A DNA stretch of 40,713 nucleotides from a virus. Its lineage: Duplodnaviria; Heunggongvirae; Uroviricota; Caudoviricetes. Location of the stretch: the IMG/VR virus record IMGVR_UViG_2671180360_000017. One strand, written 5' to 3'. This document shows, one piece after another, positions 1,445-40,347 of the stretch (position 1 is the first letter of the stretch; each line of letters starts with the position of its first letter). The notes beneath the pieces are model-generated. The model was not told the origin of the DNA and made no database searches. It worked only from the letters and a program-made list of their open reading frames with translations. The position numbers and the translations under genes were made by a program.

Positions 1445-2452
1445 TTAGAACTGGTAGACGATACCAACTGCAAACTGGTCATCAGTTGCGGCATCGGTAA
1501 TCGCTGCATCGTCTTTATCCAGCAGGTTAAATTTGTATGCTGTGTAGACGTTCATGTTCTTATTGAAGTAGTACCAGGTACCAACTTCGATATAATTTAC
1601 GCGGTCAGCATCAACACCTTTATGTCCATTACGAGCATAAAGATCTTTGCCTTTGGAATATACGTAGCCTAAAGACGGACGTAAACCGAAGTCGAACTGA
1701 TACTGTACAACAGCTTCAAAGTTTTGGGTTTTATTTGCAAAATGATCATTAGCCAAAACGGTCATGTTGCGGGTTTCACCGTACATCATTGCTGCATAGA
1801 TATTATTTGCATCATACTTGGCTGCTAATGACCACACTTCAGCGTTATCACCGTAGCCGTCACCAGCTTGTTCATTAGTACGATCAGATTTGCTATATGC
1901 ACCTACAAAACCAAAACCTTCGATGTTGTAGTCTACAGACAACGCATAGCCATCACCGTTTTGTTTAGTAACGCCACGATTGCTGTTCTTACCTTGATAT
2001 TGCACAGCAAAATTCAGACCATCAACCAGACCAAAGAAATCAGAGTTACGGTAGGTTGCAACACCGTTGGTACGACCGTTCATGAAGTTGTCAGCGGAAG
2101 CCCAGGAATCACCACCCCATTCAACTAACATATCGGTATAAGCTGCGGCATCATAAGCAACACCGTAGTTACGACCATAGTCGAAAGATCCTAACTCGTT
2201 ATATTTCAAACCTGCGAAGGTTAAACGGGTTTTTTCCTGATTAGAGCCTTCGGGCTTGCTGGCGTCGAGGTTGTATTCAAACTGACCAAAACCAGTCAGT
2301 TCGCTGGTGATTTGGGTTTCACCTTTAACACCGAAACGAGCATAGGAGGTATCTTCGTTTTCGCTGTTATTATCATCAGTATTTGACCAGATGCGTTCGC
2401 CAACCATCTTGCCGTAGAAATCAACTTTATTGCCATTTATGTAAACGGGTTA
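1445..2452 (-). pseudogene. yedS: OmpC/OmpF-family porin, 3' portion (mature domain) separated from its promoter and signal peptide by the prophage
   Basis: 320 aa ORF ending in the porin C-terminal motif GIVYQF; reading frame continues upstream to mature N-terminus residues [10 protein letters not shown] and then hits a stop; signal-peptide part found at 39694-39781; symbol inferred from hchA / yedR neighbourhood. Confidence 0.75.
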
Positions 2453-2528
2453 ATGAAAACAATAAGTTATAGTAAAAACAATAAGTTGGGTTGGTGGTCA
2501 GTGGTGGTTATTACGGGGTAATGCCAAC

Positions 2529-2551
2529 CGCTGCCGCCACTTTGTCGCCAT
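2529..2551 (+). repeat. 23 bp direct repeat, int-proximal copy (att core or Int arm-type site)
   Basis: cgctgccgccactttgtcgccat; matches 39609-39631 with one mismatch. Confidence 0.6.
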
Positions 2552-2585
2552 TTGGAACAACCCGGTTGTGCTGCCAATTTGCATG

Positions 2586-2918
2586 CTAACGGATAGAACC
2601 ATCAGGATATAAGTACACGCCACCCTCTAGATACATTGGCTCACCATCTTCAACTGCAATATCTTGATAAAGTTCAGCCAGTTCATTAGATTCATTTTTT
2701 ACAAGATTATATGTATCAACATCATACCCAAGGATTTTTAACTCATCATCTGAGGTTGCTCCTTGTTTTTGCTTAAGCGCAACAATATCAAAAATCCACT
2801 TTTTGCCATCTTTAACGTAGTACGCCCCAGAATCATAACCACGATCGTCAAGTACTTTTTCAAATCCCATCGATAATGCTTTTTTGACAGTATGTTTTTT
2901 TACGGTAATGATAGCCAT
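2586..2918 (-). CDS. Hypothetical protein (110 aa), AT-rich cargo gene between the prophage end and int
   Basis: Uninterrupted 110 aa ORF in AT-rich DNA, weak RBS; no recognisable motif. Confidence 0.45.
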   Translation of the reverse strand: MAIITVKKHTVKKALSMGFEKVLDDRGYDSGAYYVKDGKKWIFDIVALKQKQGATSDDELKILGYDVDTYNLVKNESNELAELYQDIAVEDGEPMYLEGGVYLYPDGSIR

Positions 2919-3026
2919 GTAATCTCTTAATATATTGAATAAAAGTGAACTTATATACTGATAAAAGTTTACTCTGACGCAATTAACTCAGCTAGTGGGG
3001 GATGATGTTATTTTTGCACCAGTAGA

Positions 3027-4043
3027 TCACACTTCTAGCGTTGCGAGGGGGTTGAATCTCAGAGCCGTCTCAAGATGATCGGGTGCTAAATGGGCATAGC
3101 GCATAGTCATTTTTATATCGTGATGTCCGAGGATTTTTTGCAAAGCAAGGATATTTCCACCCGACATCATGAAGTGCGCCGCAAACGTATGGCGCAGAAC
3201 GTGTGTCAGTTGACCGCGAGGGAGCACGATAGACGTTTTTTCCATCACGGATAAAAATTGAAAATAGCAGTCTGTAAAGAAATTGAACCCATCAAGCGCC
3301 ATGATCTCTTCGTAAAGCTCTTTACTGATAGGGATGCTTCTGTTTTTCTTCCCCTTCGTTCTTACAAAGGTAATTCGGTATTTGGTCACTTGCGAGCGGG
3401 TAAGATTTATTGCTTCTCGCCAGCGTGCGCCTGTGCTTAGGCATATCTTGACTACCAGTGCCAGAATTGGGTCCTGACGTTTGCAATCAGCCAGCAGTTC
3501 AACAATCTGCTCATGGGTAAGCCATGCCATCTCTTTTTCTGCGATGGTGAATTTTCGCATGTTCTCCAGTGGGTTCGGATACGACCATTCGCCCAGGCGG
3601 GATAGTTCGCTAAAAACACTACTTAGATAGCTTTGCTCCAGGTTAATGGTGACCGGGCTTGCTCCTTTCTTCCATTTCTCGCTGAAGTAGATCTCACCTG
3701 TCAGGCGTTTATCTCGATAGTGGGCAAACATTTTAGAGGTTAGATCAGTTGCAAGGGGATTGCCCAGAGCGTCAACCATCAACAGCAGTTTGTCATAGAC
3801 ATGCTGCCCAGCTGTCAGAGATTTACCATGTAGTTTGAACCATAGCTCAATCACGTCTTTCAATGTCCGACGATCCACTGATTCGCCCAGCCAGGGCTTT
3901 GCTTCGGTTTCTTCCATCGTGTGACGCTCAAAAGCCAGAGCTTCGCCTTTGGTGGCGAATTGTTTACGCACACGACGTCCACTACGTCCGGCGGGGTAAC
4001 ATTCGCAAAGCCATTTTCCTGTGGTGAGTTTTCGTACTGCCAT
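3027..4043 (-). CDS. int: Tyrosine integrase (P2 Int-like)
   Basis: Tyrosine-recombinase C-terminal motifs (HVLRHTFA ... RYAHL); ORF extends to 4121 but the start at MAVRKLTTGKW (4043) gives about 338 aa, matching P2 Int length; position next to the att end. Confidence 0.85.
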   Translation of the reverse strand: MAVRKLTTGKWLCECYPAGRSGRRVRKQFATKGEALAFERHTMEETEAKPWLGESVDRRTLKDVIELWFKLHGKSLTAGQHVYDKLLLMVDALGNPLATDLTSKMFAHYRDKRLTGEIYFSEKWKKGASPVTINLEQSYLSSVFSELSRLGEWSYPNPLENMRKFTIAEKEMAWLTHEQIVELLADCKRQDPILALVVKICLSTGARWREAINLTRSQVTKYRITFVRTKGKKNRSIPISKELYEEIMALDGFNFFTDCYFQFLSVMEKTSIVLPRGQLTHVLRHTFAAHFMMSGGNILALQKILGHHDIKMTMRYAHLAPDHLETALRFNPLATLEV

Positions 4044-4229
4044 AAAAAATGCCCTCCAGTAGAGAGCATTTTTACTGTATGTATAACCAGTGTCAATGTA
4101 TGAAATCCTGCGACCATACATCTCACTGAAGCCATAATGAAGTTAGCTATTTTTTGCTATGTGAGTATGTGACTTTTGCGGTTAGCCTGCGGCTCATTGT
4201 TATATTAGGCGCAGATATAAAAGCAAAAT

Positions 4230-4421
4230 TTATCGCGAGTTTTTAGTACAGATTTTTTTTGATTTACTAATAGTTCCATCATTGCAAACGAACTTTCCAT
4301 CGGAGGTACAGTGAGAGACACCTCCCTTTTTCCCAGAACAAGGATAATTTTTAGCATAGGTAGTTAGTGGGTTTAATAACAAAGAGCATGATAAAACCAC
4401 AAAAAATACCTTACCAAGCAT
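4230..4421 (-). CDS. Small secreted cysteine-rich protein (63 aa precursor) encoded between cI and int
   Basis: Strong RBS (gggaggaa) 4 nt upstream of ATG; N-terminal hydrophobic signal-like segment then about 40 residues with 4-5 Cys; AT-rich; same strand as and immediately downstream of cI. Confidence 0.5.
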
Positions 4422-4436
4422 AGTTTCCTCCCGGTA

Positions 4437-5012
4437 TTACCTAACGTACTTAATTGTTAAACTTATAATTTTCCCAATTATTTCAACATCTTCTATCTTG
4501 CACTCGAAGGCTCTGTTTCCACCCTCGACGAAGATTCTTCCACCGGGTAAACGAGTAATGTCACGGATCGTTATTTCGCCATCAATACTTATTACCCATT
4601 TACCATCACGTATATCATCAAATTCCTTATCACAAATAAATTCAGAATTATTATCTGTGATTACAAAAAGATTCTTGAATGCCGACGGTAGAAATTCTCT
4701 ATCGAAAATATAAAAACCGTCTTCACACAAGGCCCCATCAGATAATACATATTTAGCAACTTCCATAGTATTTGTATTACCTGAAGTTTGCTTTGAACCA
4801 TGCCCGGTTGTGAGCCAATTAAGCGAGGTGCCTGTTTCAAGGGCGCACTGGATTACCCATTCTGCTGGGAATGAGTCACGCATGTAGCGTGTGGCGAGTG
4901 TACTTTTAGAGATTCCTAAATGATCGCACAACGCCTGTCGAGTCTTGAATCCATAAGCTTCTACCATGCGCTCTATAGCGCCTCGTCCGCCTTTCTCCAA
5001 ATTCATGGTCAC
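4437..5012 (-). CDS. cI: Immunity repressor, phage 186 CI-like
   Basis: 191 aa (186 CI is about 192 aa), N-terminal HTH region, divergent from the apl/cII operon, upstream of int. Confidence 0.75.
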   Translation of the reverse strand: MTMNLEKGGRGAIERMVEAYGFKTRQALCDHLGISKSTLATRYMRDSFPAEWVIQCALETGTSLNWLTTGHGSKQTSGNTNTMEVAKYVLSDGALCEDGFYIFDREFLPSAFKNLFVITDNNSEFICDKEFDDIRDGKWVISIDGEITIRDITRLPGGRIFVEGGNRAFECKIEDVEIIGKIISLTIKYVR

Positions 5013-5030
5013 TCCAAGTGAACTTTTATC

Positions 5031-5059
5031 TTGACGATTTCACTGTGCGATCGTATGTT
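5031..5059 (+). promoter_or_regulatory. Candidate early lytic promoter (pR-like) in the cI / apl divergent switch region
   Basis: TTGACG, 17 bp spacer, TATGTT upstream of apl-like gene; the 5013-5131 interval is the only place for the lysis-lysogeny switch. Confidence 0.35.
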
Positions 5060-5131
5060 TATGGTGTTCACAAAATACAAACGATCCGTATTCGTCCTGA
5101 TTAATCATCATTAAACGAGGAATGTTGCATC

Positions 5132-5353
5132 ATGAGACCTAACATTTCAATCACTCTTACCACCCCTCATGTGACTATTGAACGCTATAGCGAGCTGACA
5201 GGGCTATCCATCGATACCATCAATGACATGTTGGCTGATGGACGCCTTATCCGTCACCGACTGCGCAAAGATAAAAAACGCGAAAAAGTGATGATCAACA
5301 TAGCAGCAATGACCGTTGATGCGCTTTCAGAATGCAATCTAAACCTTAATTAG
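5132..5353 (+). CDS. Apl/Cox-like excisionase / lytic switch regulator
   Basis: 73 aa ORF, first gene of the rightward early operon, HTH-like segment; position equals 186 apl / P2 cox. Confidence 0.55.
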
Positions 5354-5385
5354 TTCGATTCTGAAATACATCAGAGGCATTGACC

Positions 5386-5895
5386 ATGTTTGATTACCAA
5401 GTTTCCAAACATCCACATTTTGATGAAGCCTGTCGTGCATTCGCATTGCGCCACAACCTGGTGCAACTGGCAGAACGTGCTGGCATGAATGTGCAGATTC
5501 TGCGGAACAAGTTGAACCCAGCGCAACCTCATTTATTAACCGCACCAGAAATCTGGCTGCTTACCGATCTGACTGAAGATTCAACGCTGGTAGATGGTTT
5601 TCTGGCTCAGATTCACTGCCTGCCATGCGTACCGATTAATGAGGTGGCAAAAGAGAAACTGCCACATTACGTCATGAGTGCAACCGCAGAGATCGGGCGT
5701 GTTGCTGCAGGTGCGGTATCTGGCGATGTAAAAACCAGTGCAGGTCGTCGTGATGCTATCAGCAGCATTAACTCTGTAACACGACTGATGGCGTTGGCTG
5801 CTGTTTCATTGCAGGCCCGTTTACAGGCTAACCCTGCGATGGCGAGTGCAGTTGATACCGTGACTGGCCTCGGTGCTTCATTCGGTTTGCTGTGA
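5386..5895 (+). CDS. cII: CII-like lysogeny establishment regulator (186 CII-like)
   Basis: 169 aa, same length as 186 CII, N-terminal region recognisably similar from memory; synteny after apl. Confidence 0.65.
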
Positions 5896-10787: not shown

Positions 10788-10923
10788 TAGGTTTCGTTTG
10801 TAATGAGTCATGTTTTTTGAGTCCGATAGTAGACAGCTAGAGGGATAAATGATTAATAGATAGATTAAACATAGTGATGGGCGTAAAATCGCGCGCATTT
10901 TATTGGCAACGGATCTGAACTCA

Positions 10924-11817
10924 ATGGCGGATAAGACTCAATCAGTAAGTATTGTGTATCAAGGCAAAGCTCTCGACGATCATAAGATGGATATTCTTTC
11001 GTTTGCGAAAAGTTTGCAGGGGCTAGGTGAGGCTATCTACTCTGCAAATGAGATTGTAAACGGAGGGCGAGACATTGAAGTTAACGTTGACGCTGAATTG
11101 ATAGCCGGTTCCTTTGGGTTTGATATTGAGGTTGTACAACATCTAGCTAATGCTAAAGATGTTGTACAAATTTTAGGTTTGTCAGCCATTCCTTTAGCCG
11201 TTGGCGGTGCTACAGTTTTAGAGGTTCTCAAGAAGCTTAACGGGCGTAAGATCGACATAGTCGAGAAAGCTAACGGTAGTGACAAAGTTAAGCTGAAAGT
11301 CGATGGTGAAGAGATTGTTTGCTCTGAAGATGTCGAAAAAATCGTTAATGCCCCAGAGATTCGTAAGGCTGTTGACGCGTTTGTCAGACAGCCTCTGTTA
11401 CAAGATGGTATCGACAATTTTGTGGTAAAAAAATCGCGCACCTCTAAGAAAGAAATCCTCAAAATTCATAAAGATGAGGCAGAAGAGTTTAAGTCGCCAA
11501 AAGTTCTCTTTGAAACCAAAGAAGAAGTTGACGAATTTGAAACAACCGTGACATTCGTTTCGGCGCATACTGACAAAAAAAGTGGCTGGCGTGTTGAGTT
11601 TGGCGGTGAAAAGCGCAATGTCAGAATGGAAGATAATGAGTTCATCAAGCTTGTTACTGGACCAGACGCCCCCAAAATTTTTGGCGAATTGTTTGCTGTG
11701 AAGATGAAGAAAATTGTGAAAGATTCCGGTGGCCAGGTAGACGAAAAGTTATCGATCATCAAAGTGGGTCGACACTTTGCCGCCAAAGATAGAAAAATAA
11801 AACCTGATGCGGATTAA
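10924..11817 (+). CDS. Hypothetical soluble protein (297 aa from ATG 10924; 304 aa if the TTG at 10903 is used), first gene of the AT-rich cargo operon
   Basis: Long uninterrupted ORF in AT-rich DNA between dinI-like gene and the cos region; highly charged K/E/D-rich; no recognisable motif. Confidence 0.6.
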   Translation: MADKTQSVSIVYQGKALDDHKMDILSFAKSLQGLGEAIYSANEIVNGGRDIEVNVDAELIAGSFGFDIEVVQHLANAKDVVQILGLSAIPLAVGGATVLEVLKKLNGRKIDIVEKANGSDKVKLKVDGEEIVCSEDVEKIVNAPEIRKAVDAFVRQPLLQDGIDNFVVKKSRTSKKEILKIHKDEAEEFKSPKVLFETKEEVDEFETTVTFVSAHTDKKSGWRVEFGGEKRNVRMEDNEFIKLVTGPDAPKIFGELFAVKMKKIVKDSGGQVDEKLSIIKVGRHFAAKDRKIKPDAD

Positions 11818-12762: not shown

Positions 12763-14031
12763 ATGGAAATTTTTGATACGAATGATATCTTTGGGCTCTC
12801 AAGAGATTTGCCACTTAATTACATTGAAAGACCTGATGTTGATTTCAAACTTAAACAGGAATTACAAGCAAAGAAACATATTGTTATTTACGGCAGTTCA
12901 AAGCAGGGTAAGACTTGCGTAAGAAAACACTGTATTAATTCTGATGATTATATTTTGGTGCAGTGTTCGAATCGTTCTGATGTATCTGAATTGAATGCAA
13001 GTATTTTAAAAAGAGCTGGATTCGAAATAACTCAGTCTACCAAGAAAGGTATTACGGGGAAAAATAAAATAATCGCATCAATAAAAACTTCTATTTTGGG
13101 TTTTGTGGCGAGTGCCGGAGGCGAGATCGAAGATACGAAATCTCATGAACAAGTAACCGCGCCTTTAGAAATTGATGTTGATGATGTTAATGATGTTATA
13201 GCGGCTTTAAAATCTATAAATTTCAAGAAGATTATCGTTCTTGAGGATTTTCATTATATGCCTTTCGAAACTCAAAGAGATTTTTCGATCGCATTAAAAG
13301 CCTTTCATGAAACATCAAGCATTATTTTTGTAATTGTTGGAGTTTGGCTAGAAGATAATCGGCTCATTGTTTACAATGGTGACTTAACTGGCAGGATTAT
13401 TTCTGTTAACGCAGACAAATGGCAAGATTCTGAACTGGAGATGGCAATTGATAAAGGAGGTTTACTCCTTAACATTGATTTTGATCCAACTTTCAAAGCA
13501 GATGTAGTAACACACTGTCTCAATAGTATTTATTTAGTGCAAGAAGCATGTAGGCGTGCGTGTATTGAATGCGGAATATCAGAGACTCAGCAAACAAAAA
13601 GAACTATTGGAGCTGGTTTGGATGGAAAGGATATCATTGCAAAAATTGTTAATGACCAATCGGCTCGTTACAATTCTTTCCTTATTAATTTTTCAGATGG
13701 ATTTCAAGATACTGAACTTCAAATGCATAAATGGATTTTATATCCTGTCCTTTCATCAACCATTAGTGAACTTGAATTAGGTTTGAAATTTAAAGATATA
13801 AGGGCAATATTACAAAGTGTACATCCAAGAGGGGAGAAGTTAAACCTGGGTAATGTTACTCAGTCGTTACAATCAACGGCGTCTTTGCAAATAAAGAAAA
13901 ATATAATGCCTATTATTTTGGATTATGACCAAACAAATAGGAAACTGAATGTTGTTGATAAAGGCTTCCTAATATGGTTGCAACATCAAGATATCAAAGA
14001 TCTAAAGGATGATTTGGAGTTGCCAAATTAA
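12763..14031 (+). CDS. P-loop NTPase of unassigned family (422 aa), orphan cargo gene
   Basis: Walker A GSSKQGKT and Walker B-like IIVLEDFH; AT-rich; convergent with Q and separated from it by an inverted repeat. Confidence 0.7.
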   Translation: MEIFDTNDIFGLSRDLPLNYIERPDVDFKLKQELQAKKHIVIYGSSKQGKTCVRKHCINSDDYILVQCSNRSDVSELNASILKRAGFEITQSTKKGITGKNKIIASIKTSILGFVASAGGEIEDTKSHEQVTAPLEIDVDDVNDVIAALKSINFKKIIVLEDFHYMPFETQRDFSIALKAFHETSSIIFVIVGVWLEDNRLIVYNGDLTGRIISVNADKWQDSELEMAIDKGGLLLNIDFDPTFKADVVTHCLNSIYLVQEACRRACIECGISETQQTKRTIGAGLDGKDIIAKIVNDQSARYNSFLINFSDGFQDTELQMHKWILYPVLSSTISELELGLKFKDIRAILQSVHPRGEKLNLGNVTQSLQSTASLQIKKNIMPIILDYDQTNRKLNVVDKGFLIWLQHQDIKDLKDDLELPN

Positions 14032-22863: not shown

Positions 22864-24732
22864 TTAATTTTCAATGCTTTGCTTTAATTTATCTATTGCG
22901 GGAGTTAAACAATCATTTATGAGCTCATCGATTTGTAATGATAATATATTTGAGTTTATTTGAGTTTTCTTTTCAATTAGCTTTCTAATTAGCTCACGGT
23001 GGAAAAAACGCTCTGCAGAAAGCTCTTTTAGATAAGGGGAGTTGTTGTATCGGTTTTTTATAGCATAGCCAAAGAAATGCATCTCGGTTGAGTCTACCAG
23101 TATTTTTGTTAGTTGTTCAGCATCACCAAAATAAAGAACTGGTTTGTCGTGAAATGAATAAATATCTTTGTTGTTGAAATTTAGATGTGCGTAATATTCA
23201 TGATTTCCGGCCTGTATTAATTTGAATATCTTTTGAGCGTCTTGGCTAAGTTGATATGCAATTAACACATTTTTCTTTTGTTCTATGTAATTAACAAGCT
23301 CCTTGAATTCCCTAGTTTCTTTGCAATGAAAAGTTAATCCTCCCCATCGCTCATCCTTAATGTCTTCATCAAAAATTTCATAACTAGTTTGTATCATTCC
23401 TTTTTCTGCTAAAATATCAACAGCAGAGTGGGCTAAGTTTGTTAAATAGTGTTCGTTGATGGGTTTTATGTGTTCTCTGGATAAATGAAGTAATAATCCG
23501 TAAATATGCTTAAGAACATGCTCGTTCAATATTTCAAAATTAATAAGCGTATGAAGTGTTGAATTGTAATTTTCCTCAAATTCTGTGTATTTTAATCGAT
23601 CATAATTCCAAAGTTGTGTCCATGGCTCAATTGTTTTATTAGAAACACTGACAAATGTTATTAATTCAGATATTATTTTTTCTTGATTGATTTTCTGATT
23701 GTCAATTATATCGATCCAGGTATCCTCGTCTAAGATTAAATTTGACAAATAAGTTGTACCATATTTTTCAATTAAATTGGATGTGTATTTATTATCATCA
23801 TCTATTTTATATGTTAACAAGTCAGAAACGGTTCGTTTTATTTTATTAGATTCAAAATAGAGTATAAAATGTAATTGATATAATCTGAGTGTCAAATCTG
23901 AATTTTGCTGAAACTGTGCTGGTAATATTTTGAATATTCTTTCAAAAAAAGAAATTTGCCTTTCAATTAATCTAATGTTATTACACTCTGAAAGAGTGAG
24001 TAAGCTCTCAATATTTTTTATGTTCAGAATGGTGTTGAGTTCGCTAGTTATATTTTTTAGAAAATATTCGTAGGCGTGAGAATGTTGAGGTTGATATTTG
24101 AAAGTTATACCTATAACTTTTTCTTTTGCATCTAAATAAATACCATCATGATTTTTATTTCTAGCGGGGTTTAATATTTCTCTCTCATTGGCGATAATCA
24201 AAACCTTGCATTCTTTTTCTTCAACGAAATTATTTATATAACCAAATATAGAATTCCAATCTAATTCGCAGCGTTCAAGATCATCAAATATCAATATGGT
24301 GTTTTCTGGTGAGTAGTAAAAGTCTTTAATACTTACGTTGGGTAGTTCTGGGGAGCCCTCTACACTTGTAACGAATGAATCACTTAAATCAATCTTAAGT
24401 GTGCCTTTAATTAGTGCCTTAGTTAGTGTGCCAGCAAGCAACATGCCTTTAGATGAAAGGAAGGGATGCATTTGCTTGAAAATTATTTCGTCAATTTGTT
24501 CGGTGGATTTTATTCCATATAATGAGATCATTAATGGCTTAACTTCCCCTTTTAGTGATTCTTCATTCATTAATTTACGGACAAACCATGTTTTCCCGCT
24601 TCCCCATTCGCCGTCAATCATTACTGCGAAATTAGGGGATTTTTCAAGACCCACTAAATAATTAAGATATGAGGTTAGCTCTTCATTGTAATTCATTGGA
24701 TTGTAAGACCCTTCATACAATTTGAAAATCAC
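22864..24732 (-). CDS. KAP-family P-loop NTPase (622 aa), antisense cargo gene between S and V
   Basis: Walker A GEWGSGKT (KAP-type GxWGxGKT) and Walker B ILIFDDLE; strongly AT-rich; opposite strand to the flanking late genes; alternative start at Met 13 (24696). Confidence 0.75.
   Translation of the reverse strand: MIFKLYEGSYNPMNYNEELTSYLNYLVGLEKSPNFAVMIDGEWGSGKTWFVRKLMNEESLKGEVKPLMISLYGIKSTEQIDEIIFKQMHPFLSSKGMLLAGTLTKALIKGTLKIDLSDSFVTSVEGSPELPNVSIKDFYYSPENTILIFDDLERCELDWNSIFGYINNFVEEKECKVLIIANEREILNPARNKNHDGIYLDAKEKVIGITFKYQPQHSHAYEYFLKNITSELNTILNIKNIESLLTLSECNNIRLIERQISFFERIFKILPAQFQQNSDLTLRLYQLHFILYFESNKIKRTVSDLLTYKIDDDNKYTSNLIEKYGTTYLSNLILDEDTWIDIIDNQKINQEKIISELITFVSVSNKTIEPWTQLWNYDRLKYTEFEENYNSTLHTLINFEILNEHVLKHIYGLLLHLSREHIKPINEHYLTNLAHSAVDILAEKGMIQTSYEIFDEDIKDERWGGLTFHCKETREFKELVNYIEQKKNVLIAYQLSQDAQKIFKLIQAGNHEYYAHLNFNNKDIYSFHDKPVLYFGDAEQLTKILVDSTEMHFFGYAIKNRYNNSPYLKELSAERFFHRELIRKLIEKKTQINSNILSLQIDELINDCLTPAIDKLKQSIEN
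24702..24719. promoter_or_regulatory. Ogr-type late-promoter site (TGT-N12-ACA) for the V operon (P_V)
   Basis: tgtaagacccttcataca about 45 bp upstream of the V start; lies within the first codons of the KAP ORF if its first ATG is used. Confidence 0.45.
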
Positions 24733-28703: not shown

Positions 28704-29305
28704 TGAATAATGCAGAATTAAATAGTGAATTGATTGCTACTGCGGCAGGGAATATTACCGTTTATAACTATGATTGTGAAACACGAGAATATATTTCCAC
28801 ATCAACTGAATATCTTGCTGTGGGTGTCGGTATCCCGGTATGTTCCTGTCTGGATACACCAGGTATACATAAGGCGGGTTATGCAATATGCCGCTCTGTG
28901 GATTTAAATTCATGGGAATATGTGCCAGACCATCGAGGTGAAATTGTCTATAGCACCGAAACGGGAGATACCAAAGAAATCACAGTGCCAGGCGACTATC
29001 CCGAAAATACAACCACTATCGCCCCGTTAACGCCATACGATAAATGGGATGGTGAGAAATGGGTGACCGATATTGAGGCACAGCATAGCGCCGCAGTAGA
29101 CGCGGCAGAAGCGCATCGCCAATCGCGGATTGATGCTGCAATGGCTTCCATCAGTCTGATTCAGCTGAAATTGCAGGCCGGACGTAAACTGACGCAGGCA
29201 GAAACAACCCGGCTTAACGCTGTGCTGGATTACATTGACGCGGTGGTGGCAACAGATACCAGCACCGCGCCGGATGTCATCTGGCCTGAACTACCGGAGG
29301 CGTAG
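28703..29305 (+). CDS. G: Tail fibre assembly protein (Tfa / gpG-like), copy 1
   Basis: 200 aa with the Tfa C-terminal motif DTSTAPDVIWPELP; immediately follows H. Confidence 0.8.
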   Translation: MNNAELNSELIATAAGNITVYNYDCETREYISTSTEYLAVGVGIPVCSCLDTPGIHKAGYAICRSVDLNSWEYVPDHRGEIVYSTETGDTKEITVPGDYPENTTTIAPLTPYDKWDGEKWVTDIEAQHSAAVDAAEAHRQSRIDAAMASISLIQLKLQAGRKLTQAETTRLNAVLDYIDAVVATDTSTAPDVIWPELPEA

Positions 29306-29738
29306 GCCATTCAATATCTGGAGCACTGGAAATATCGACCATTTCCAGTGCATCCAGATAATCCAGCCACAAATTATATTGTGCCAGTTCCTCACCTTTC
29401 AGACGACCGATAGCTGCTTTACCAGGCCATTGCTTACCGTTCATGTATTCGTTGGCATGGTCAATTCTCGACTTTTTCTCTGAGTCAGCCGCAGCAAGTT
29501 GTTCTTTATGCGTAGGTGACGGAAGATCTACCCAGCAAGGCAACCCATCATCACCAATGCCACGCATTTTACCCTCAGGAGCGTTTCCCATGAAAACCAG
29601 TGCATCTTCAGCATCTATATTGATGCCGTCTGACGGCCATGTGCCAGCAGTTAAATAATCATATTTCAGTGCCACAAGATAAAAAGCATTTTCCGTCGGG
29701 CTGAATACATAGTCGACCATTAATATCCCACCCCCCAT
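29277..29738 (-). CDS. Second-type tail fibre assembly protein (153 aa), inverted copy
   Basis: Tfa C-terminal motif DISSAPDIEWPTPP; identical to 30184-30645 on the other strand. Confidence 0.7.
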   Translation of the reverse strand: MGGGILMVDYVFSPTENAFYLVALKYDYLTAGTWPSDGINIDAEDALVFMGNAPEGKMRGIGDDGLPCWVDLPSPTHKEQLAAADSEKKSRIDHANEYMNGKQWPGKAAIGRLKGEELAQYNLWLDYLDALEMVDISSAPDIEWPTPPVVQAR

Positions 29739-29834
29739 ACTGCCACTGTTGAATTAGATTTCGTGTATGCGCAAGCGGCTTTGAATTTGACCCGGTCAAC
29801 AATCGCTGCGCTAACAAAAGGGGCTCCATTAGTC

Positions 29835-29860
29835 GCGTAGATCACATTGGTTTGGGAGAA
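29835..29860 (+). repeat. Crossover site B (conserved right half-site joined to non-consensus left flank)
   Basis: gcgtagatcaca TT GGTTTGGGAGAA; the right half is identical to site A, the left half is interior Hv2 sequence. Confidence 0.5.
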
Positions 29861-30202
29861 GCAGCGAAAATGCCTGCTGCGACAGCATTAGCCAGCAGTG
29901 CAGGTAACATCACTATTCCAGTATTAATTGGTGGAGTACAACGAACAGCATTGCTTCAGTGGAAGACGCTATCAGTGCCGCAATCTACCGACGGTAATAT
30001 GGTCGTTGTTGATGGCTCATGGCCGGTTGCCTTTCCTAATGCTTGCCTTTCCATCAATCCTTCGCTGGTAAATTCTGTGATCTACGCGACTAATGGAGCC
30101 CCTTTTGTTAGCGCAGCGATTGTTGACCGGGTCAAATTCAAAGCCGCTTGCGCATACACGAAATCTAATTCAACAGTGGCAGTATGGGGGGTGGGATATT
30201 AA
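29861..30202 (+). CDS. Promoterless alternative tail-fibre C-terminal cassette Hv2
   Basis: Frame is continuous with the LGLGE codons of the crossover site, so fusion to H constant would give a 111 aa alternative C-terminus; followed by its own tfa. Confidence 0.55.
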   Translation, partial: AAKMPAATALASSAGNITIPVLIGGVQRTALLQWKTLSVPQSTDGNMVVVDGSWPVAFPNACLSINPSLVNSVIYATNGAPFVSAAIVDRVKFKAACAYTKSNSTVAVWGVGY

Positions 30203-30645
30203 TGGTCGACTATGTATTCAGCCCGACGGAAAATGCTTTTTATCTTGTGGCACTGAAATATGATTATTTAACTGCTGGCACATGGCCGTCAGACGGCATC
30301 AATATAGATGCTGAAGATGCACTGGTTTTCATGGGAAACGCTCCTGAGGGTAAAATGCGTGGCATTGGTGATGATGGGTTGCCTTGCTGGGTAGATCTTC
30401 CGTCACCTACGCATAAAGAACAACTTGCTGCGGCTGACTCAGAGAAAAAGTCGAGAATTGACCATGCCAACGAATACATGAACGGTAAGCAATGGCCTGG
30501 TAAAGCAGCTATCGGTCGTCTGAAAGGTGAGGAACTGGCACAATATAATTTGTGGCTGGATTATCTGGATGCACTGGAAATGGTCGATATTTCCAGTGCT
30601 CCAGATATTGAATGGCCTACGCCTCCGGTAGTTCAGGCCAGATGA
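30184..30645 (+). CDS. Second-type tail fibre assembly protein (153 aa), partner of Hv2
   Basis: Tfa motif; overlaps the Hv2 stop. Confidence 0.7.
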   Translation: MGGGILMVDYVFSPTENAFYLVALKYDYLTAGTWPSDGINIDAEDALVFMGNAPEGKMRGIGDDGLPCWVDLPSPTHKEQLAAADSEKKSRIDHANEYMNGKQWPGKAAIGRLKGEELAQYNLWLDYLDALEMVDISSAPDIEWPTPPVVQAR

Positions 30646-31219
30646 CATCCGGCGCGGTGCTGGTATCTGTTGCCACCACCGCGTCAATGTAATCCAGCAC
30701 AGCGTTAAGCCGGGTTGTTTCTGCCTGCGTCAGTTTACGTCCGGCCTGCAATTTCAGCTGAATCAGACTGATGGAAGCCATTGCAGCATCAATCCGCGAT
30801 TGGCGATGCGCTTCTGCCGCGTCTACTGCGGCGCTATGCTGTGCCTCAATATCGGTCACCCATTTCTCACCATCCCATTTATCGTATGGCGTTAACGGGG
30901 CGATAGTGGTTGTATTTTCGGGATAGTCGCCTGGCACTGTGATTTCTTTGGTATCTCCCGTTTCGGTGCTATAGACAATTTCACCTCGATGGTCTGGCAC
31001 ATATTCCCATGAATTTAAATCCACAGAGCGGCATATTGCATAACCCGCCTTATGTATACCTGGTGTATCCAGACAGGAACATACCGGGATACCGACACCC
31101 ACAGCAAGATATTCAGTTGATGTGGAAATATATTCTCGTGTTTCACAATCATAGTTATAAACGGTAATATTCCCTGCCGCAGTAGCAATCAATTCACTAT
31201 TTAATTCTGCATTATTCAT
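30617..31219 (-). CDS. Tail fibre assembly protein (Tfa / gpG-like), copy 2 (inverted)
   Basis: Identical to the 28703-29305 product. Confidence 0.7.
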   Translation of the reverse strand: MNNAELNSELIATAAGNITVYNYDCETREYISTSTEYLAVGVGIPVCSCLDTPGIHKAGYAICRSVDLNSWEYVPDHRGEIVYSTETGDTKEITVPGDYPENTTTIAPLTPYDKWDGEKWVTDIEAQHSAAVDAAEAHRQSRIDAAMASISLIQLKLQAGRKLTQAETTRLNAVLDYIDAVVATDTSTAPDVIWPELPEA

Positions 31220-31671
31220 TATGCGGCCCTCACGATATAGTTAAATGCAATATTACGCGGACGAAGTTCTGGTGATACCGGAGTCGAACCGCTGACATTA
31301 AACGTGTAATCAAACACGGAACCTGATCCAGATGAAGTAGATAAAGTTTCAGCATTTGTACTTTTTGCTACAGAAACACCACCTAAACCATTTGTTTGTT
31401 TAACAGCAAAAAGACCATTAAACGTTCCTGAAATAGACGGCATACCATGAGATTGCGCAGTGAGAATCCCCCTGCCACTATCAACGCCTCTTCCATCATC
31501 CCAGCCACGCATAAACTCACCACGTAAATCAGGCAATTTATTTGTCGGGTAAGCCTTTGCCAGTTCTGGGTATTCTTCAGCAGAAAAAGCCGCACCATTG
31601 CATTTCAGCCAGCCTGTTGGCGGAGTGGCTGCAGGCCACGGAACAGGCACACCAACGGGTAACACCGAACC
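31219..31671 (-). CDS. Silent inverted copy of the Hv1 tail-fibre C-terminal cassette
   Basis: Identical to the H C-terminus; no constant part upstream. The ORF track extension to 31725 is read-through into unique DNA. Confidence 0.6.
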   Translation of the reverse strand, partial: GSVLPVGVPVPWPAATPPTGWLKCNGAAFSAEEYPELAKAYPTNKLPDLRGEFMRGWDDGRGVDSGRGILTAQSHGMPSISGTFNGLFAVKQTNGLGGVSVAKSTNAETLSTSSGSGSVFDYTFNVSGSTPVSPELRPRNIAFNYIVRAA

Positions 31672-31697
31672 TTCTCCCAAACCAACGTTTATGAAAA
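31672..31697 (-). repeat. Crossover site C (inverted relative to A and B), next to the invertase gene
   Basis: TTCTCCCAAACC AA CGTTTATGAAAA on the plus strand; inner half is the reverse complement of the site A right half. Confidence 0.6.
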
Positions 31698-31752
31698 TGC
31701 AGAGATAATGGCTAACTGGCATCATCCCCGGTTTTTATTCAGGGGATTGATC

Positions 31753-32319
31753 ATGCTTATTGGCTATGTACGCGTGTCAACAAATGACCAGAACACCGAT
31801 TTGCAACGTAATGCACTGAACTGCGCGGGATGTGAGCGGATTTTTGAGGATAAAATCAGTGGCACTAAGTCCGACAGACCGGGGCTGAAAAAACTGCTCA
31901 GGACACTATCGGCAGGAGACACGCTGGTTGTCTGGAAGCTGGACAGGTTGGGGCGCAGTATGCGGCATCTTGTTACGCTGATAGAAGAGTTGCGTCAGCG
32001 TGGCGTGAATTTCCGAAGCCTGACTGACAGTATTGATACCAGCACCCCAATGGGCCGTTTCTTTTTTCATGTCATGGGGGCCCTGGCTGAAATGGAACGC
32101 GAACTGATAGTTGAACGTACCAGGGCAGGGCTGGCTGCAGCTCGTGCTAAAGGCAGAGTAGGTGGACGCCGTCCTAAGTTGACTACCGAACAGTGGGCAC
32201 AGATTGGGCGTTTACTCGAGGCCGGAGAATCAAGACAGCGTATTGCACTGATTTTTGATGTAGGCGTTTCTACCATTTATAGAAAATTTCCGGCAAATAA
32301 GAGCAATGAATCCCCCTGA
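31753..32319 (+). CDS. Serine DNA invertase (Hin/Gin/Cin/Pin family)
   Basis: Start at MLIGYVRVSTNDQ (catalytic Ser motif); very close to Salmonella Hin along the whole length including the C-terminal HTH; 188 aa. Confidence 0.85.
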   Translation: MLIGYVRVSTNDQNTDLQRNALNCAGCERIFEDKISGTKSDRPGLKKLLRTLSAGDTLVVWKLDRLGRSMRHLVTLIEELRQRGVNFRSLTDSIDTSTPMGRFFFHVMGALAEMERELIVERTRAGLAAARAKGRVGGRRPKLTTEQWAQIGRLLEAGESRQRIALIFDVGVSTIYRKFPANKSNESP

Positions 32320-39299: not shown

Positions 39300-39389
39300 T
39301 TCTTCGCAATGGAGAACTTTTAAGTTTGCAAAATGGAATAATGCGGTATCATTATTATGAATTTAGCAAAAATGGGGAGAACTCGAAAA

Positions 39390-39608
39390 ATGATGATTTG
39401 CCCACTGTGTGGAAGTGCCGCCCATACTCGCAGCAGTTTTCAGGTATCTTCATTGACCAAAGAGCGTTACAACCAGTGCCAGAACATTAACTGCAGCCAT
39501 ACTTTTGTTACCCATGAAACTTTTGTTCGTTCGATTGCAACGCCAAAAGAGTCAAATCCGGTTCAGCCGCATCCAATGAAATCAGGACAGGTGGCGCTCT
39601 CTCTTTGA
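39390..39608 (+). CDS. ogr: Ogr zinc-finger late-gene activator
   Basis: CPLCGSAAH ... CQNINCSHTF four-cysteine motif and overall similarity to P2 Ogr; start taken at MMICPLCG. Confidence 0.8.
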   Translation: MMICPLCGSAAHTRSSFQVSSLTKERYNQCQNINCSHTFVTHETFVRSIATPKESNPVQPHPMKSGQVALSL

Positions 39609-39631
39609 CGCTGCCGCCATTTTGTCGCCAT
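39609..39631 (+). repeat. 23 bp direct repeat, ogr-proximal copy (att core or Int arm-type site)
   Basis: cgctgccgccattttgtcgccat, 1 nt after the ogr stop; matches 2529-2551. Confidence 0.6.
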
Positions 39632-39693
39632 CGTTAAAAAACAGTGCTTCTAACATCATGATTTTAAACAGCTTAAATTTCAGGCAACAAAAA

Positions 39694-39781
39694 ACCCATC
39701 TTTATTGTAAATTTCAGCCGCATTTGCTGCGCCAGCAACTAATAACGCCGGGACCAGCATTGCCAGAACTTTTCTTTTCAT
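39694..39781 (-). pseudogene. yedS: Porin 5' fragment (start codon, signal peptide, first mature residues) separated from the rest of the gene by the prophage
   Basis: Minus-strand translation [29 protein letters not shown], then divergence into prophage DNA and a stop after four codons. Confidence 0.75.
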
Positions 39782-40347
39782 TATGTATTCCCTTGTGATT
39801 ATAATCTTCATGAATATATCAATAAGTGCCGTTATCCAAAAAAAAGCACATTTGGATACTATTCTATGAAGTTCATTTTATTTTAAAGATTACATGTAAC
39901 AAATGTATTTAAAAGATTTCAAAATGTTTCTAATCTATTTAATATAATTCAGGATTATGAATTCTAAATATAAATATTCATGAAAATTATAAATGTATAT
40001 CAATATGTTATGAGTTGAGCGGAAGCATAGGGGGTATCAATGATTGTTGCGCCAAACGGCTGGTGTGATCACGCGCACATTAATGAAGGCATAAAAAAAA
40101 GCCGGCATCATGCCGGCCCAAAAAATATAAACAAGACGATAAAAGGCTAATAACGGAGGCATCATGACACAGAAAAATAAAAAGGTATAATTGTATTCAG
40201 TGCTAATATATTGATTAAATGAATTAATAAAGCCGATCTCAAAGATAAATAAAATCGCTCAAAACGATTTTTCCTGTATTCACTGCCGTTGCGCAAAAAT
40301 TATCTATTTGTTCAAAAAATGAGTGAGTCTTGACTGGCTCATCCAAT

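Follow-up and report, generated by a model that had tools for sequence, protein, structure and literature searches.

A yedS-type porin gene split by a prophage

The stretch of 40,713 nucleotides considered here (virus record IMGVR_UViG_2671180360_000017, Caudoviricetes; the whole stretch is referred to as the window) carries a 37.3 kb P2-like prophage, at 2437-39695, within a porin gene of the yedS type. The gene is read from the minus strand and is present in two parts. To the left lies the body of the porin (1445-2436, minus), without start codon or signal peptide; 1445-2432 holds the 3' portion of the gene, starting with the final base of the Gly29 codon and including the stop, as judged by translation and by intact loci, and forms the B arm of attL. 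To the right, 39696-39781 (minus) encodes the start codon, a signal peptide of 21 amino acids (aa) and the residues AEIYNKDG; a sequence-only reading of the same DNA had placed the missing promoter and signal peptide at 39694-39781, almost the same interval. Within this segment 39700-39781 takes in the start codon, the signal peptide, AEIYNK and the first base of Asp28, again by translation and match to intact loci, and is the B' arm of attR. Asp28 and Gly29 are spanned by ATGG on the gene strand, CCAT on the strand shown here; a four-way comparison of attL, attR, attB and attP places the attL copy of CCAT at 2433-2436 and the attR copy at 39696-39699. The porin parts are flanked by hchA (1-852, minus) on the left and by drpB to the right of the porin 5' end. 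Between them the prophage genes follow a P2-type order: int, CI, a Cox-like gene, CII, replication gene A, the P2-type late genes, gpD and ogr. The last of these (39357-39608, plus; translation, homologue annotation and phrog_603) is the late-gene activator and the final phage gene before attP.

Removing 2437-39699 in silico joins 1445-2436 to 39700-39781 and yields an open reading frame (ORF) of 357 aa that is identical at 358 of 358 positions (stop counted) to porin WP_000824362.1 of strain 2011C-4251. The prophage thus interrupts the 5' coding region of a porin gene, as the sequence-only reading had it: the split frame rejoins to an intact porin. The insertion is conservative, host bases being neither gained nor lost. 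As the locus stands, the residual 5' piece keeps the promoter, the signal peptide and eight residues ending in FFVA and a stop, the frame running on into phage DNA (...DGFFVA), while the body is promoterless and without a start codon; because the 5' fragment stops and the body has no promoter, the locus is porin null. Both fragments are otherwise undamaged, which means that precise excision would restore the gene, and excision by integrase (Int) plus Cox would do so exactly. One mark of active lysogeny, a gene otherwise intact and restored by precise excision, is found here in silico (100% identity to the intact allele); the element is not filed under the active lysogeny or phage regulatory switch family.

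The two regions at either end of this prophage are the attL (about 2433-2553) and attR (about 39609-39699) of a complete P2-like prophage of the Peduoviridae, Fels-2/PhiECO1 group. We interpret the element as a prophage with a recombination module of the coliphage 186 type that has inserted at a secondary site in yedS, the repeats near its ends being sites for integrase and integration host factor (IHF); to this interpretation as a whole we give a probability of about 0.88.

The crossover point and the layout of attP

Two sets of repeats bracket the prophage. At the junctions themselves stand the outer sequences CCATTTATGTAAAC (2433-2446) and CCATCTTTATTGTAAAT (39696-39712); 82 bp inside the left one and 64 bp inside the right one lie two 23-mers, CGCTGCCGCCACTTTGTCGCCAT (2529-2551) and CGCTGCCGCCATTTTGTCGCCAT (39609-39631), which match at 22 of 23 positions. 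Besides one 9-mer, the 23-mer is the sole stretch of at least nine bases common to the two junction regions, and an arithmetic estimate puts the chance expectation for such a match between two stretches of about 100 bp at ~1e-8. Two views had been offered from the sequence alone: either the outer repeat is the core of the attachment site and the 23-mers are arm-type sites for Int, or the 23-mer is the core and some 135 bp of foreign DNA pre-existed in the gene.

The queries were two empty sites and two attP sequences assembled in silico; the E. coli comparison set comprised 5426 complete genomes. The uninterrupted porin gene, equivalent to window 1900-2432 followed by 39696-40100 with the intervening 183 bp absent, occurs in at least 1638 of these genomes (strain 2011C-4251 is an example), and the best uninterrupted loci cover the composite in two pieces that span exactly 938 bp. 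Alignment with an uninterrupted yedS locus, the check proposed at the outset, therefore finds the gene whole and with no extra DNA. In Klebsiella phage KP12 (OM835953), window segments 39300-39712 and 2447-2555 are matched as a single piece (97.3%), from which it follows that both 23-mers and the DNA between them are phage attP.

The point of exchange is apparent when attL, attR, attB (2011C-4251) and attP (KP12) are set side by side. With ^ marking the switch, attB reads ...AACTTTATTGCCAT^CTTTATTGTAAAT... (in other forms ...ACTTTATTGCCAT^CTTTATTGTAAAT... and ...AACTTTATTGCCAT^CTTTATTGTAAATTTCAGC...) and attP reads ...CAGGCAACAAAAAACCCAT^TTATGTAAACGGG... (extended to ...CAGGCAACAAAAAACCCAT^TTATGTAAACGGGTTAATG..., or, in short form across the switch point, ...AAAAAACCCAT^TTATGTAAACGGG...); attL reads ...AACTTTATTGCCAT^TTATGTAAACGGG... 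and attR ...AAAAAACCCAT^CTTTATTGTAAAT.... The words proposed for a k-mer census were TTGCCATTTATGTAAA and AAAACCCATCTTTRTT. At the crossover attP and porin have only CCAT in common. Phage DNA starts at 2437, the same sequence being present in the attP of free phage KP12 and in prophages at another chromosomal site, and in phage 4LV2017 the annotated attL and attR have their common core on the left side of CCCAT. What was taken for a left outer "copy" belongs to the P' arm of the phage and is not a degenerate duplicate of porin codons. Of the view that the outer repeat is the core, the position of the crossover stands; a common core of 14-17 bp does not, since only CCAT is held in common.

Could CCAT(C)TTTAT(T)GTAAA be a genuine core of 14-17 bp all the same, with the N-terminal coding sequence of the porin (TTATTGTAAA in yedS) as a dedicated primary site? 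The yedS sequence to the right of CCAT does resemble the phage P' sequence if three gaps are allowed, and the same nucleotide has been hit recurrently in two porin genes. Without gaps, however, identity to the right of CCAT is 3 of 10 for yedS and 5 of 10 for ompF, and the left copy is invariant phage sequence at any host site. A crossover inside the GTAAA similarity was considered and rejected: it would yield junctions other than those observed. Moreover, the intergenic site between rcdA and ybjL, described below, holds 1114 of 1120 P' arms, and one identical phage uses both sites. We regard a dedicated porin site as very improbable and the gapped resemblance to yedS, which is weaker at ompF, as largely coincidental. 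The idea that the 23-mer is the true common core, attractive because it is the longest direct repeat bracketing the prophage, can be set aside as next to impossible: it calls for ~183 bp (2433-2528 plus 39632-39695) to have been in the porin gene before the phage arrived, yet at least 1638 genomes have the gene without that DNA (their uninterrupted loci spanning 938 bp), no E. coli genome has it with the 183 bp, free phage KP12 carries both 23-mers plus all the DNA between them as a contiguous stretch, and identical flanking DNA stands beside prophages at rcdA-ybjL and in ompF.

The reconstructed attP is about 208 bp long. Its left part runs from the ogr stop codon through two tandem 11-bp arm-type sites and an IHF-like site to the core, ...CAACAAAAAACCCAT, and the crossover; its right part comprises TTATGTAAAC, a couple of IHF-like sites, two GGTGGT motifs at 10-bp spacing and two tandem arm-type sites, and is followed by a cargo ORF and int. 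The P' arm occupies 2437-2553, and its first bases, TTATGTAAAC (2437-2446), make up most of the left "imperfect copy". Identical or near-identical versions of it are carried by free phage KP12, by the prophage that E. coli B has at rcdA-ybjL, and by 1120 E. coli genomes.

Each 23-mer consists for the most part of two tandem 11-mers. On the int side these are the predicted arm-type sites P'1, TGCCGCCACTT (2532-2542), and P'2, TGTCGCCATTT (2543-2553); on the ogr side, P1, TGCCGCCATTT (39612-39622), and P2, TGTCGCCATCG (39623-39633), all on the plus strand. In phage 186 the Int arm-type sites are annotated with the consensus YAYCGCCAYTY (GenBank U32222), and the published 186-type arm consensus is tgccGCCActt (Nilsson et al. 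2011, PMC3448106); at least two direct repeats with this type of consensus lie on each side of the core in the window (39612-39633 and 2532-2553). P1 matches the arm pattern exactly, the second P-arm repeat, TGTCGCCATCG, deviates from the consensus at its last bases, and P1 and P2 are conserved in all relatives. Ten P' arms were compared, some from E. coli and some from Klebsiella and two of them diverged; all have the block GCCAACCGCTGCCGCCACTTTGTCGCCA unchanged, and homology ends directly after it. The P' arm sites of 186, TACCGCCACTT TATCGCCATTC, are identical to TGCCGCCACTT TGTCGCCATTT of the window at 19 of 22 positions by hand count, and their distance from the predicted crossover, 97-118 bp, compares with 96-117 bp for the window pair; the P arm sites of 186 are likewise tandem 11-mers, CACCGCCATTC TATCGCCACTC. 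On this homology the 23-mers are predicted to be Int arm-type sites, in agreement with one of the two views offered from the sequence alone.

The resemblance to coliphage 186, for which we drew on the GenBank U32222 annotation, Nilsson et al. 2011 (PMC3448106) and Cutts et al. 2020 (PMC7498355), extends to the whole of the region. In 186 the order is late activator (B/ogr), tandem arm sites, IHF, core, IHF, sites for the recombination directionality factor (RDF), tandem arm sites, a small ORF and int; the window has the same order, with IHF-like sequences and putative RDF sites in the corresponding places, and its prophage has a 186-type CI and a Cox/Apl-like RDF. IHF footprints lie on both sides of the 186 core, and five Apl sites lie between the core and the P' arm sites (GenBank U32222). 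The matching positions of arm sites, IHF-like sites and GGTGGT motifs mean that the layout in the window is that of the 186 attP, with IHF and Cox sites predicted from consensus matches. There are also differences. The attachment site of 186 is the 3' end of a tRNA-Ile gene, with a common core of 36 bp that rebuilds the tRNA, whereas that of the window phage is the ybjL terminator, with 14-27 bp; the P arm sites in the window are about 42 bp closer to the core, and two were found as against three; and the core-binding region of Int differs.

The P' arm also contains two direct repeats, GAAAACAATAAGTT (2455-2468) and AAAAACAATAAGTT (2474-2487), whose starts are 19 bp apart. Their presence had been noticed in the sequence-only reading (as aaaacaataagtt repeats within 2455-2500), with an extent that proves too generous, as they end at 2488. 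They correspond to two predicted IHF-like sites on the plus strand, AAACAATAAGTTA (2457-2469) and AAACAATAAGTTG (2476-2488), each AAACAATAAGTTR unit departing from the IHF consensus WATCARNNNNTTR at one position. Of the two, the second is kept in ten of ten P' arms, and becomes a perfect consensus, AATCAATAAGTTA, in the diverged arms of strains 2012C-4502 and HZ13. A further predicted IHF-like site, AATCATGATGTTA (39651-39663, minus), lies in the P arm, also at one mismatch to WATCARNNNNTTR. It had been suggested that the two AAACAATAAGTT repeats are additional Int arm-type sites; they are indeed direct repeats within the P' arm and conserved in close relatives. They are, however, unlike either form of the arm consensus, differ from the IHF consensus by one mismatch each and match it perfectly in a diverged relative, and phage 186 has an IHF footprint at the equivalent relative position. 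We think it improbable that they are arm sites.

Two GGTGGT motifs, at 2493-2498 and 2503-2508 (plus) and so spaced by 10 bp, are candidate operators for a Cox/Apl-type excisionase, a designation in which our confidence is low; the diverged P' arms keep a GTGRY repeat with the same spacing. A search for words common to the cI-cox switch region and the att arms returned short 7-8-mers only and nothing convincing as Cox operators. In all, the intervals between core and arm sites hold three consensus-level candidates for IHF (one mismatch each) and the GGTGGT pair, in positions that parallel the 186 footprints.

A regular site beside ybjL and recurrent insertion into porin genes

Among the complete E. 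coli genomes the P' arm is present in 1120 of 5426, and in 1114 of the 1120 the junction is with rcdA. Matches in strains Z226-5 and CRE10 looked non-canonical; both are at rcdA with different cargo. The sequence-only reading had held porin targeting to be characteristic of P2-type integrases. The data do not support this: the Int is of the 186 type, and its regular site is intergenic, between rcdA (ybjK) and ybjL. As its regular attB the phage uses part of the ybjL intrinsic terminator, namely the 3' stem with the T-run (corresponding to window 39681-39699 with 2437-2462; about 23370-23440 in locus L004). The attP core, CAGGCAACAAAAAACCCAT (39681-39699), is common to attP and the regular attB, as comparisons of attL and attR in E. 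coli B BLR(DE3), 4LV2017 and ST131 strain 4224 show. In BLR(DE3) the interval from rcdA to ybjL holds the int plus 110-aa ORF module, with 99.9% identity to window 2433-5722, and attL and attR have AACAAAAAACCCAT in common. The block common to attP and the regular attB, which ends in CCCAT, measures 14 bp in E. coli B, 19-20 bp in Klebsiella and 27 bp in ST131.

Folding indicates that on the minus strand the attP core is the 3' stem and T-run of a terminator-like hairpin, AACCCGTTTACATAAATGGGTT (-9.2 kcal/mol), which precedes the same T-run. The phage thus brings its own hairpin before the T-run, so that ybjL and the int operon both keep a terminator at the regular site. At the yedS attL the phage hairpin is without its T-run and, by folding, is intact only in attP and at the regular site; as a result of this loss, transcription from int might read into the porin body. 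A terminator scan of window 2300-3100 found none.

The regular site corresponds to the PhiECO1 site group: PhiECO1, 2, 3 and PhiSEN1 have a common integration site (Nilsson et al. 2011, PMC3448106). The PhiECO1-group prophages and the defective prophage of E. coli B share with the window prophage the same attP and the same int plus 110-aa ORF module, and reside at the regular site, whereas the window prophage is in yedS; the E. coli B prophage is deleted, whereas that of the window has a full P2-type late gene set. The Klebsiella phages KP12 and 4LV2017 (KY271398; Elveevirus) have the same attP and an Int about 99% identical in amino acids. Across most of the late and replication genes, 4LV2017 has a backbone with 94-98% identity to that of the window, and this phage is integrated at the Klebsiella counterpart of the ybjL-terminator site. 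Both phages differ from the window prophage in that their Int is of full length and no cargo ORF separates int from the arm sites.

Against the 1114 insertions at the primary site, the genome census returned four in porin genes. The yedS attL junction is found in one other genome, OkiPb01675, and the yedS attR junction in OkiPb01675 and 2012C-4502; insertions in ompF are found in ST131 strain 4224 (through a search with attR) and in HZ13 (through a search with the attL of 4224). All attL junctions read ...TT(A/G)TTGCCAT^TTATGTAAA... and all attR junctions ...AAAAAACCCAT^(C/T)TTT(A/G)TT.... The secondary site shares with the core CCAT plus 10 of 19 scattered core positions (hand count), and the junctions are at the right-hand end of the common core. 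Insertion in yedS is a rare but recurrent secondary-site integration by an integrase whose primary site is rcdA-ybjL.

The clearest demonstration comes from ST131 strain 4224, a blood isolate from Houston, which carries two copies of the prophage that are identical over 33,424 bp, with 0 mismatches and the same Int accession. In NZ_CP103592.1 one copy lies at 3121359-3154782 (locus L007) and the other at 3287131-3320554 (loci L015 and L017), the two positions being rcdA-ybjL and ompF Asp28-Gly29. Two identical copies mean that a single Int with a single attP acted at both sites, and that the regular site was already filled when the second was used. The ompF copy appears to stem from a very recent second integration, with OmpF knocked out as a result.

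How many independent events do the porin insertions represent? The prophages at the porin sites have backbones that differ by 3-5%, and their cargo and int 3' ends differ, from which it follows that most are separate events. It is conceivable, although we think it unlikely, that the yedS::prophage junctions of the window were inherited or recombined from an ancestral event shared with OkiPb01675, the interior being replaced later, in which case there would be fewer than five independent events. The host flanks of the two are 99.8% identical and their junctions identical; against this, their backbones differ by 3-5% throughout, with different cargo and int 3' ends. In addition, the yedS allele of 2012C-4502 is diverged (about 86% identity) and the ompF events are necessarily separate, so that even then three or four events would be left at the least, with no change to the mechanism.

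Since the contiguous identity at the junction is just 4 bp, one might also consider illegitimate recombination independent of Int, the circular phage genome having been joined to the chromosome through microhomology. This we judge highly improbable. Five insertions in two genes are at the same host nucleotide, with the phage broken at the end of the attP core and no base gained or lost, and conservative insertions at the same nucleotide are the signature of a site-specific recombinase; in addition, paralogues without ATGG are unhit in the sample.

Several observations weigh against secondary-site integration by a 186-type module, or at least against its simplest form. Three of the four other porin lysogens show a single copy of the queried phage arm or arms, so that occupancy of the regular site by this phage family is not their explanation. 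The attR of 2012C-4502 (NZ_CP027440.1) has T next to CCAT where native yedS alleles have C, which a simple model does not predict; the T may be a later mutation, or the trace of heteroduplex or mismatch repair in the overlap. The 11-mer pattern by itself is not rare (10 occurrences in the window at up to 1 mismatch, 3.9 expected), and for this reason the arm-site call is carried by tandem arrangement, position and conservation. The arm, IHF and Cox sites are assigned by homology and consensus, and binding of the proteins there is accordingly a prediction. Finally, the junctions are also fitted by an overlap of 7 bp between CAAC and CCAT (an A6C spacer), if Holliday junctions resolve without a second exchange. 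As a separate observation, the T of 2012C-4502 would turn Asp28 into an Asn codon after excision.

Why yedS and ompF? On the gene strand attP reads ATGG-GTTTTTT-GTTG and the regular attB ATGG-GTTTTTT-GTT(A/G), while yedS reads ATGG-CAATAAA-GTTG and ompF ATGG-CAACAAA-GTAG. The porin target in its context is AAAG-ATGG-CAAYAAA-GT(T/A)G, at codons Asp28-Gly29; ompC, phoE and ompN have ACGG at the equivalent position. Integration at the secondary site would proceed as follows. A heterobivalent tyrosine integrase would bind the arm sites (the 23-mers) through its N-terminal domain and the core through its core-binding and catalytic domains. Phage 186 has a predicted 7-bp crossover at the int-proximal end of the common core (GenBank U32222 annotation), and by analogy with it and with the strand-swap rule of lambda, a 7-bp overlap may be placed at about AACCCAT. 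The first strand exchange would need just three or four matching bases adjoining the cleavage site, and heterology beyond CCAT (AAC in attP, TTG in the porin) would pin every junction at CCAT. All five porin insertions have their junction at CCAT, as the overlap model expects.

Secondary attachment sites are familiar from lambda and P2, where integration with partial core identity is far rarer than at the primary site and may disrupt genes. The porin insertions are alike in that the same recombinase and attP are used, core identity is reduced and the crossover is at the normal attP position; they differ in that a conserved coding motif is targeted, with a contiguous identity of just 4 bp. Conservation of this motif makes targets of two paralogous porin genes.

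Three further searches bear on the distribution and novelty of the phenomenon. A scan of one genome per species for the porin-type attL 20-mer returned three matches, all unrelated chance matches in metagenome-assembled genomes, and JGI metagenome contigs gave no match to the attL 26-mer or the attR 22-mer. In the literature searched we found no paper describing P2-like prophages in yedS, in ompF or beside ybjL; neither the recurrent targeting of ompF and yedS nor the ST131 double lysogen was found described there, the mechanism itself being of a known kind.

Integrase, cargo and the consequences of porin insertion

The int gene (3027-4043, minus) encodes a tyrosine integrase of 338 aa, counted from MAVRK, of the 186 type, in which the C-terminal 14 aa are replaced by EV and a stop. 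It carries PF00589 (E = 6e-22) and PF24624 (E = 2.5e-32) and matches phrog_1 (integrase). At the amino-acid level it is ~99% identical to the Int of KP12 and 57% identical to that of 186, the N-terminal arm-binding region of the latter pair being near-identical. Arm recognition is discriminated by N-terminal residues, W, E and Y in the 186 type versus Y, D and R in the P2 type (Nilsson et al. 2011, PMC3448106); GKWLCECYP in the window aligns with GGWICELYP of 186, and the discriminators are thus W, E and Y, of the 186 type. The 186-type CI (PF07022 and PF16452) is encoded at 4437-5012, on the strand opposite to the Cox-like gene. The latter (5132-5353, plus; phrog_575, E = 6e-31) specifies a Cox/Apl-like excisionase and repressor, that is, an RDF, and this Cox/Apl-type RDF gene is the first of the early operon, opposite cI.

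What became of the missing C-terminus is seen when the KP12 and 4LV2017 int genes are set beside that of the window. The last 14 codons and the stop of the ancestral int frame (...PSGDKVAAAVGITP and stop) are stranded at 2511-2555 (minus), where they contain the P' arm-type sites. Homology to KP12 breaks at 2555 and resumes near 3036, and the 480 bp between (2556-3035, minus) are an inserted cargo module with an ORF of 110 aa at 2586-2918, for which Pfam, PADLOC and PHROG gave no match. The window Int is without its last 14 residues because this module was inserted just upstream of the arm sites. The same module is present in the E. coli B prophage, and as the same truncated-int arrangement there occupies the regular site, Int evidently remains able to integrate in spite of its truncation.

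The interval between the P' arm and int is, more generally, a variable cargo slot: it holds the 110-aa ORF here and, in other strains, ORFs unrelated to it, such as a SocA-antitoxin pair or several hypothetical genes (loci L011, 3115-4343; L012, 3074-3796; L006, a 486-bp ORF after int; and L016, 2751-3020). Each cargo insertion cuts the Int C-terminus at a different length, and phage 186 has orf69 in the equivalent place. Between int in the window (3027-4043) and in KP12 (2975-4027) 41 codons differ, with two amino-acid changes, and the differences cluster in the final ~150 nt ahead of the cargo insertion. Strong purifying selection on Int, in E. coli and Klebsiella hosts alike, is indicated.

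Elsewhere in the prophage, PADLOC identifies candidate defence families in P2-type variable regions at 10903-11817, 12763-14031 and 22864-24732, with cargo matches to PDC-S42 (E = 8e-44), PDC-S59 (AAA-type ATPase, E = 5e-72) and PDC-S49 (KAP-family NTPase, E = 4e-135); related prophages have retrons, a TIR protein or a DprA/PRTase pair at those regions. At 29277-32319, three minus-strand ORFs of about 150-200 aa (29277-29738, 30617-31219 and 31219-31725) adjoin a plus-strand ORF of 203 aa (31708-32319). In related prophages this position is taken by oppositely oriented tail-fibre and tail-fibre-assembly genes beside a "recombinase family protein", an analogy that suggests an invertible host-range segment.

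For annotation the ends of the prophage are settled, at 2437 and 39695, with CCAT common to both junctions. The 23-bp repeats, best read as arm sites, are not the core: a common trap when borders are called from the longest flanking direct repeat.

A prophage family present in about one in five complete E. coli genomes occasionally lands in one codon pair of ompF or yedS. Loss of OmpF lowers the entry of beta-lactams, and since ompF was knocked out by a second prophage copy in an ST131 blood isolate, porins may plausibly be lost when a prophage jumps to the secondary site. Loss of this kind, unlike that through an insertion sequence or a frameshift, would be exactly reversible by excision. More speculatively, and we hold this to be a doubtful rather than a probable extension, this family of E. 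coli and Klebsiella phages may have a built-in secondary target, the conserved GAT GGC (Asp-Gly) motif in the N-terminal part of OmpF and YedS, both general porins, such that resident prophages are a recurrent and precisely reversible source of porin-null variants, which antibiotics, colicins or porin-dependent phages would select. If so, the ST131 bloodstream isolate with an exact second copy in ompF would be one example of such a selected porin-null variant.

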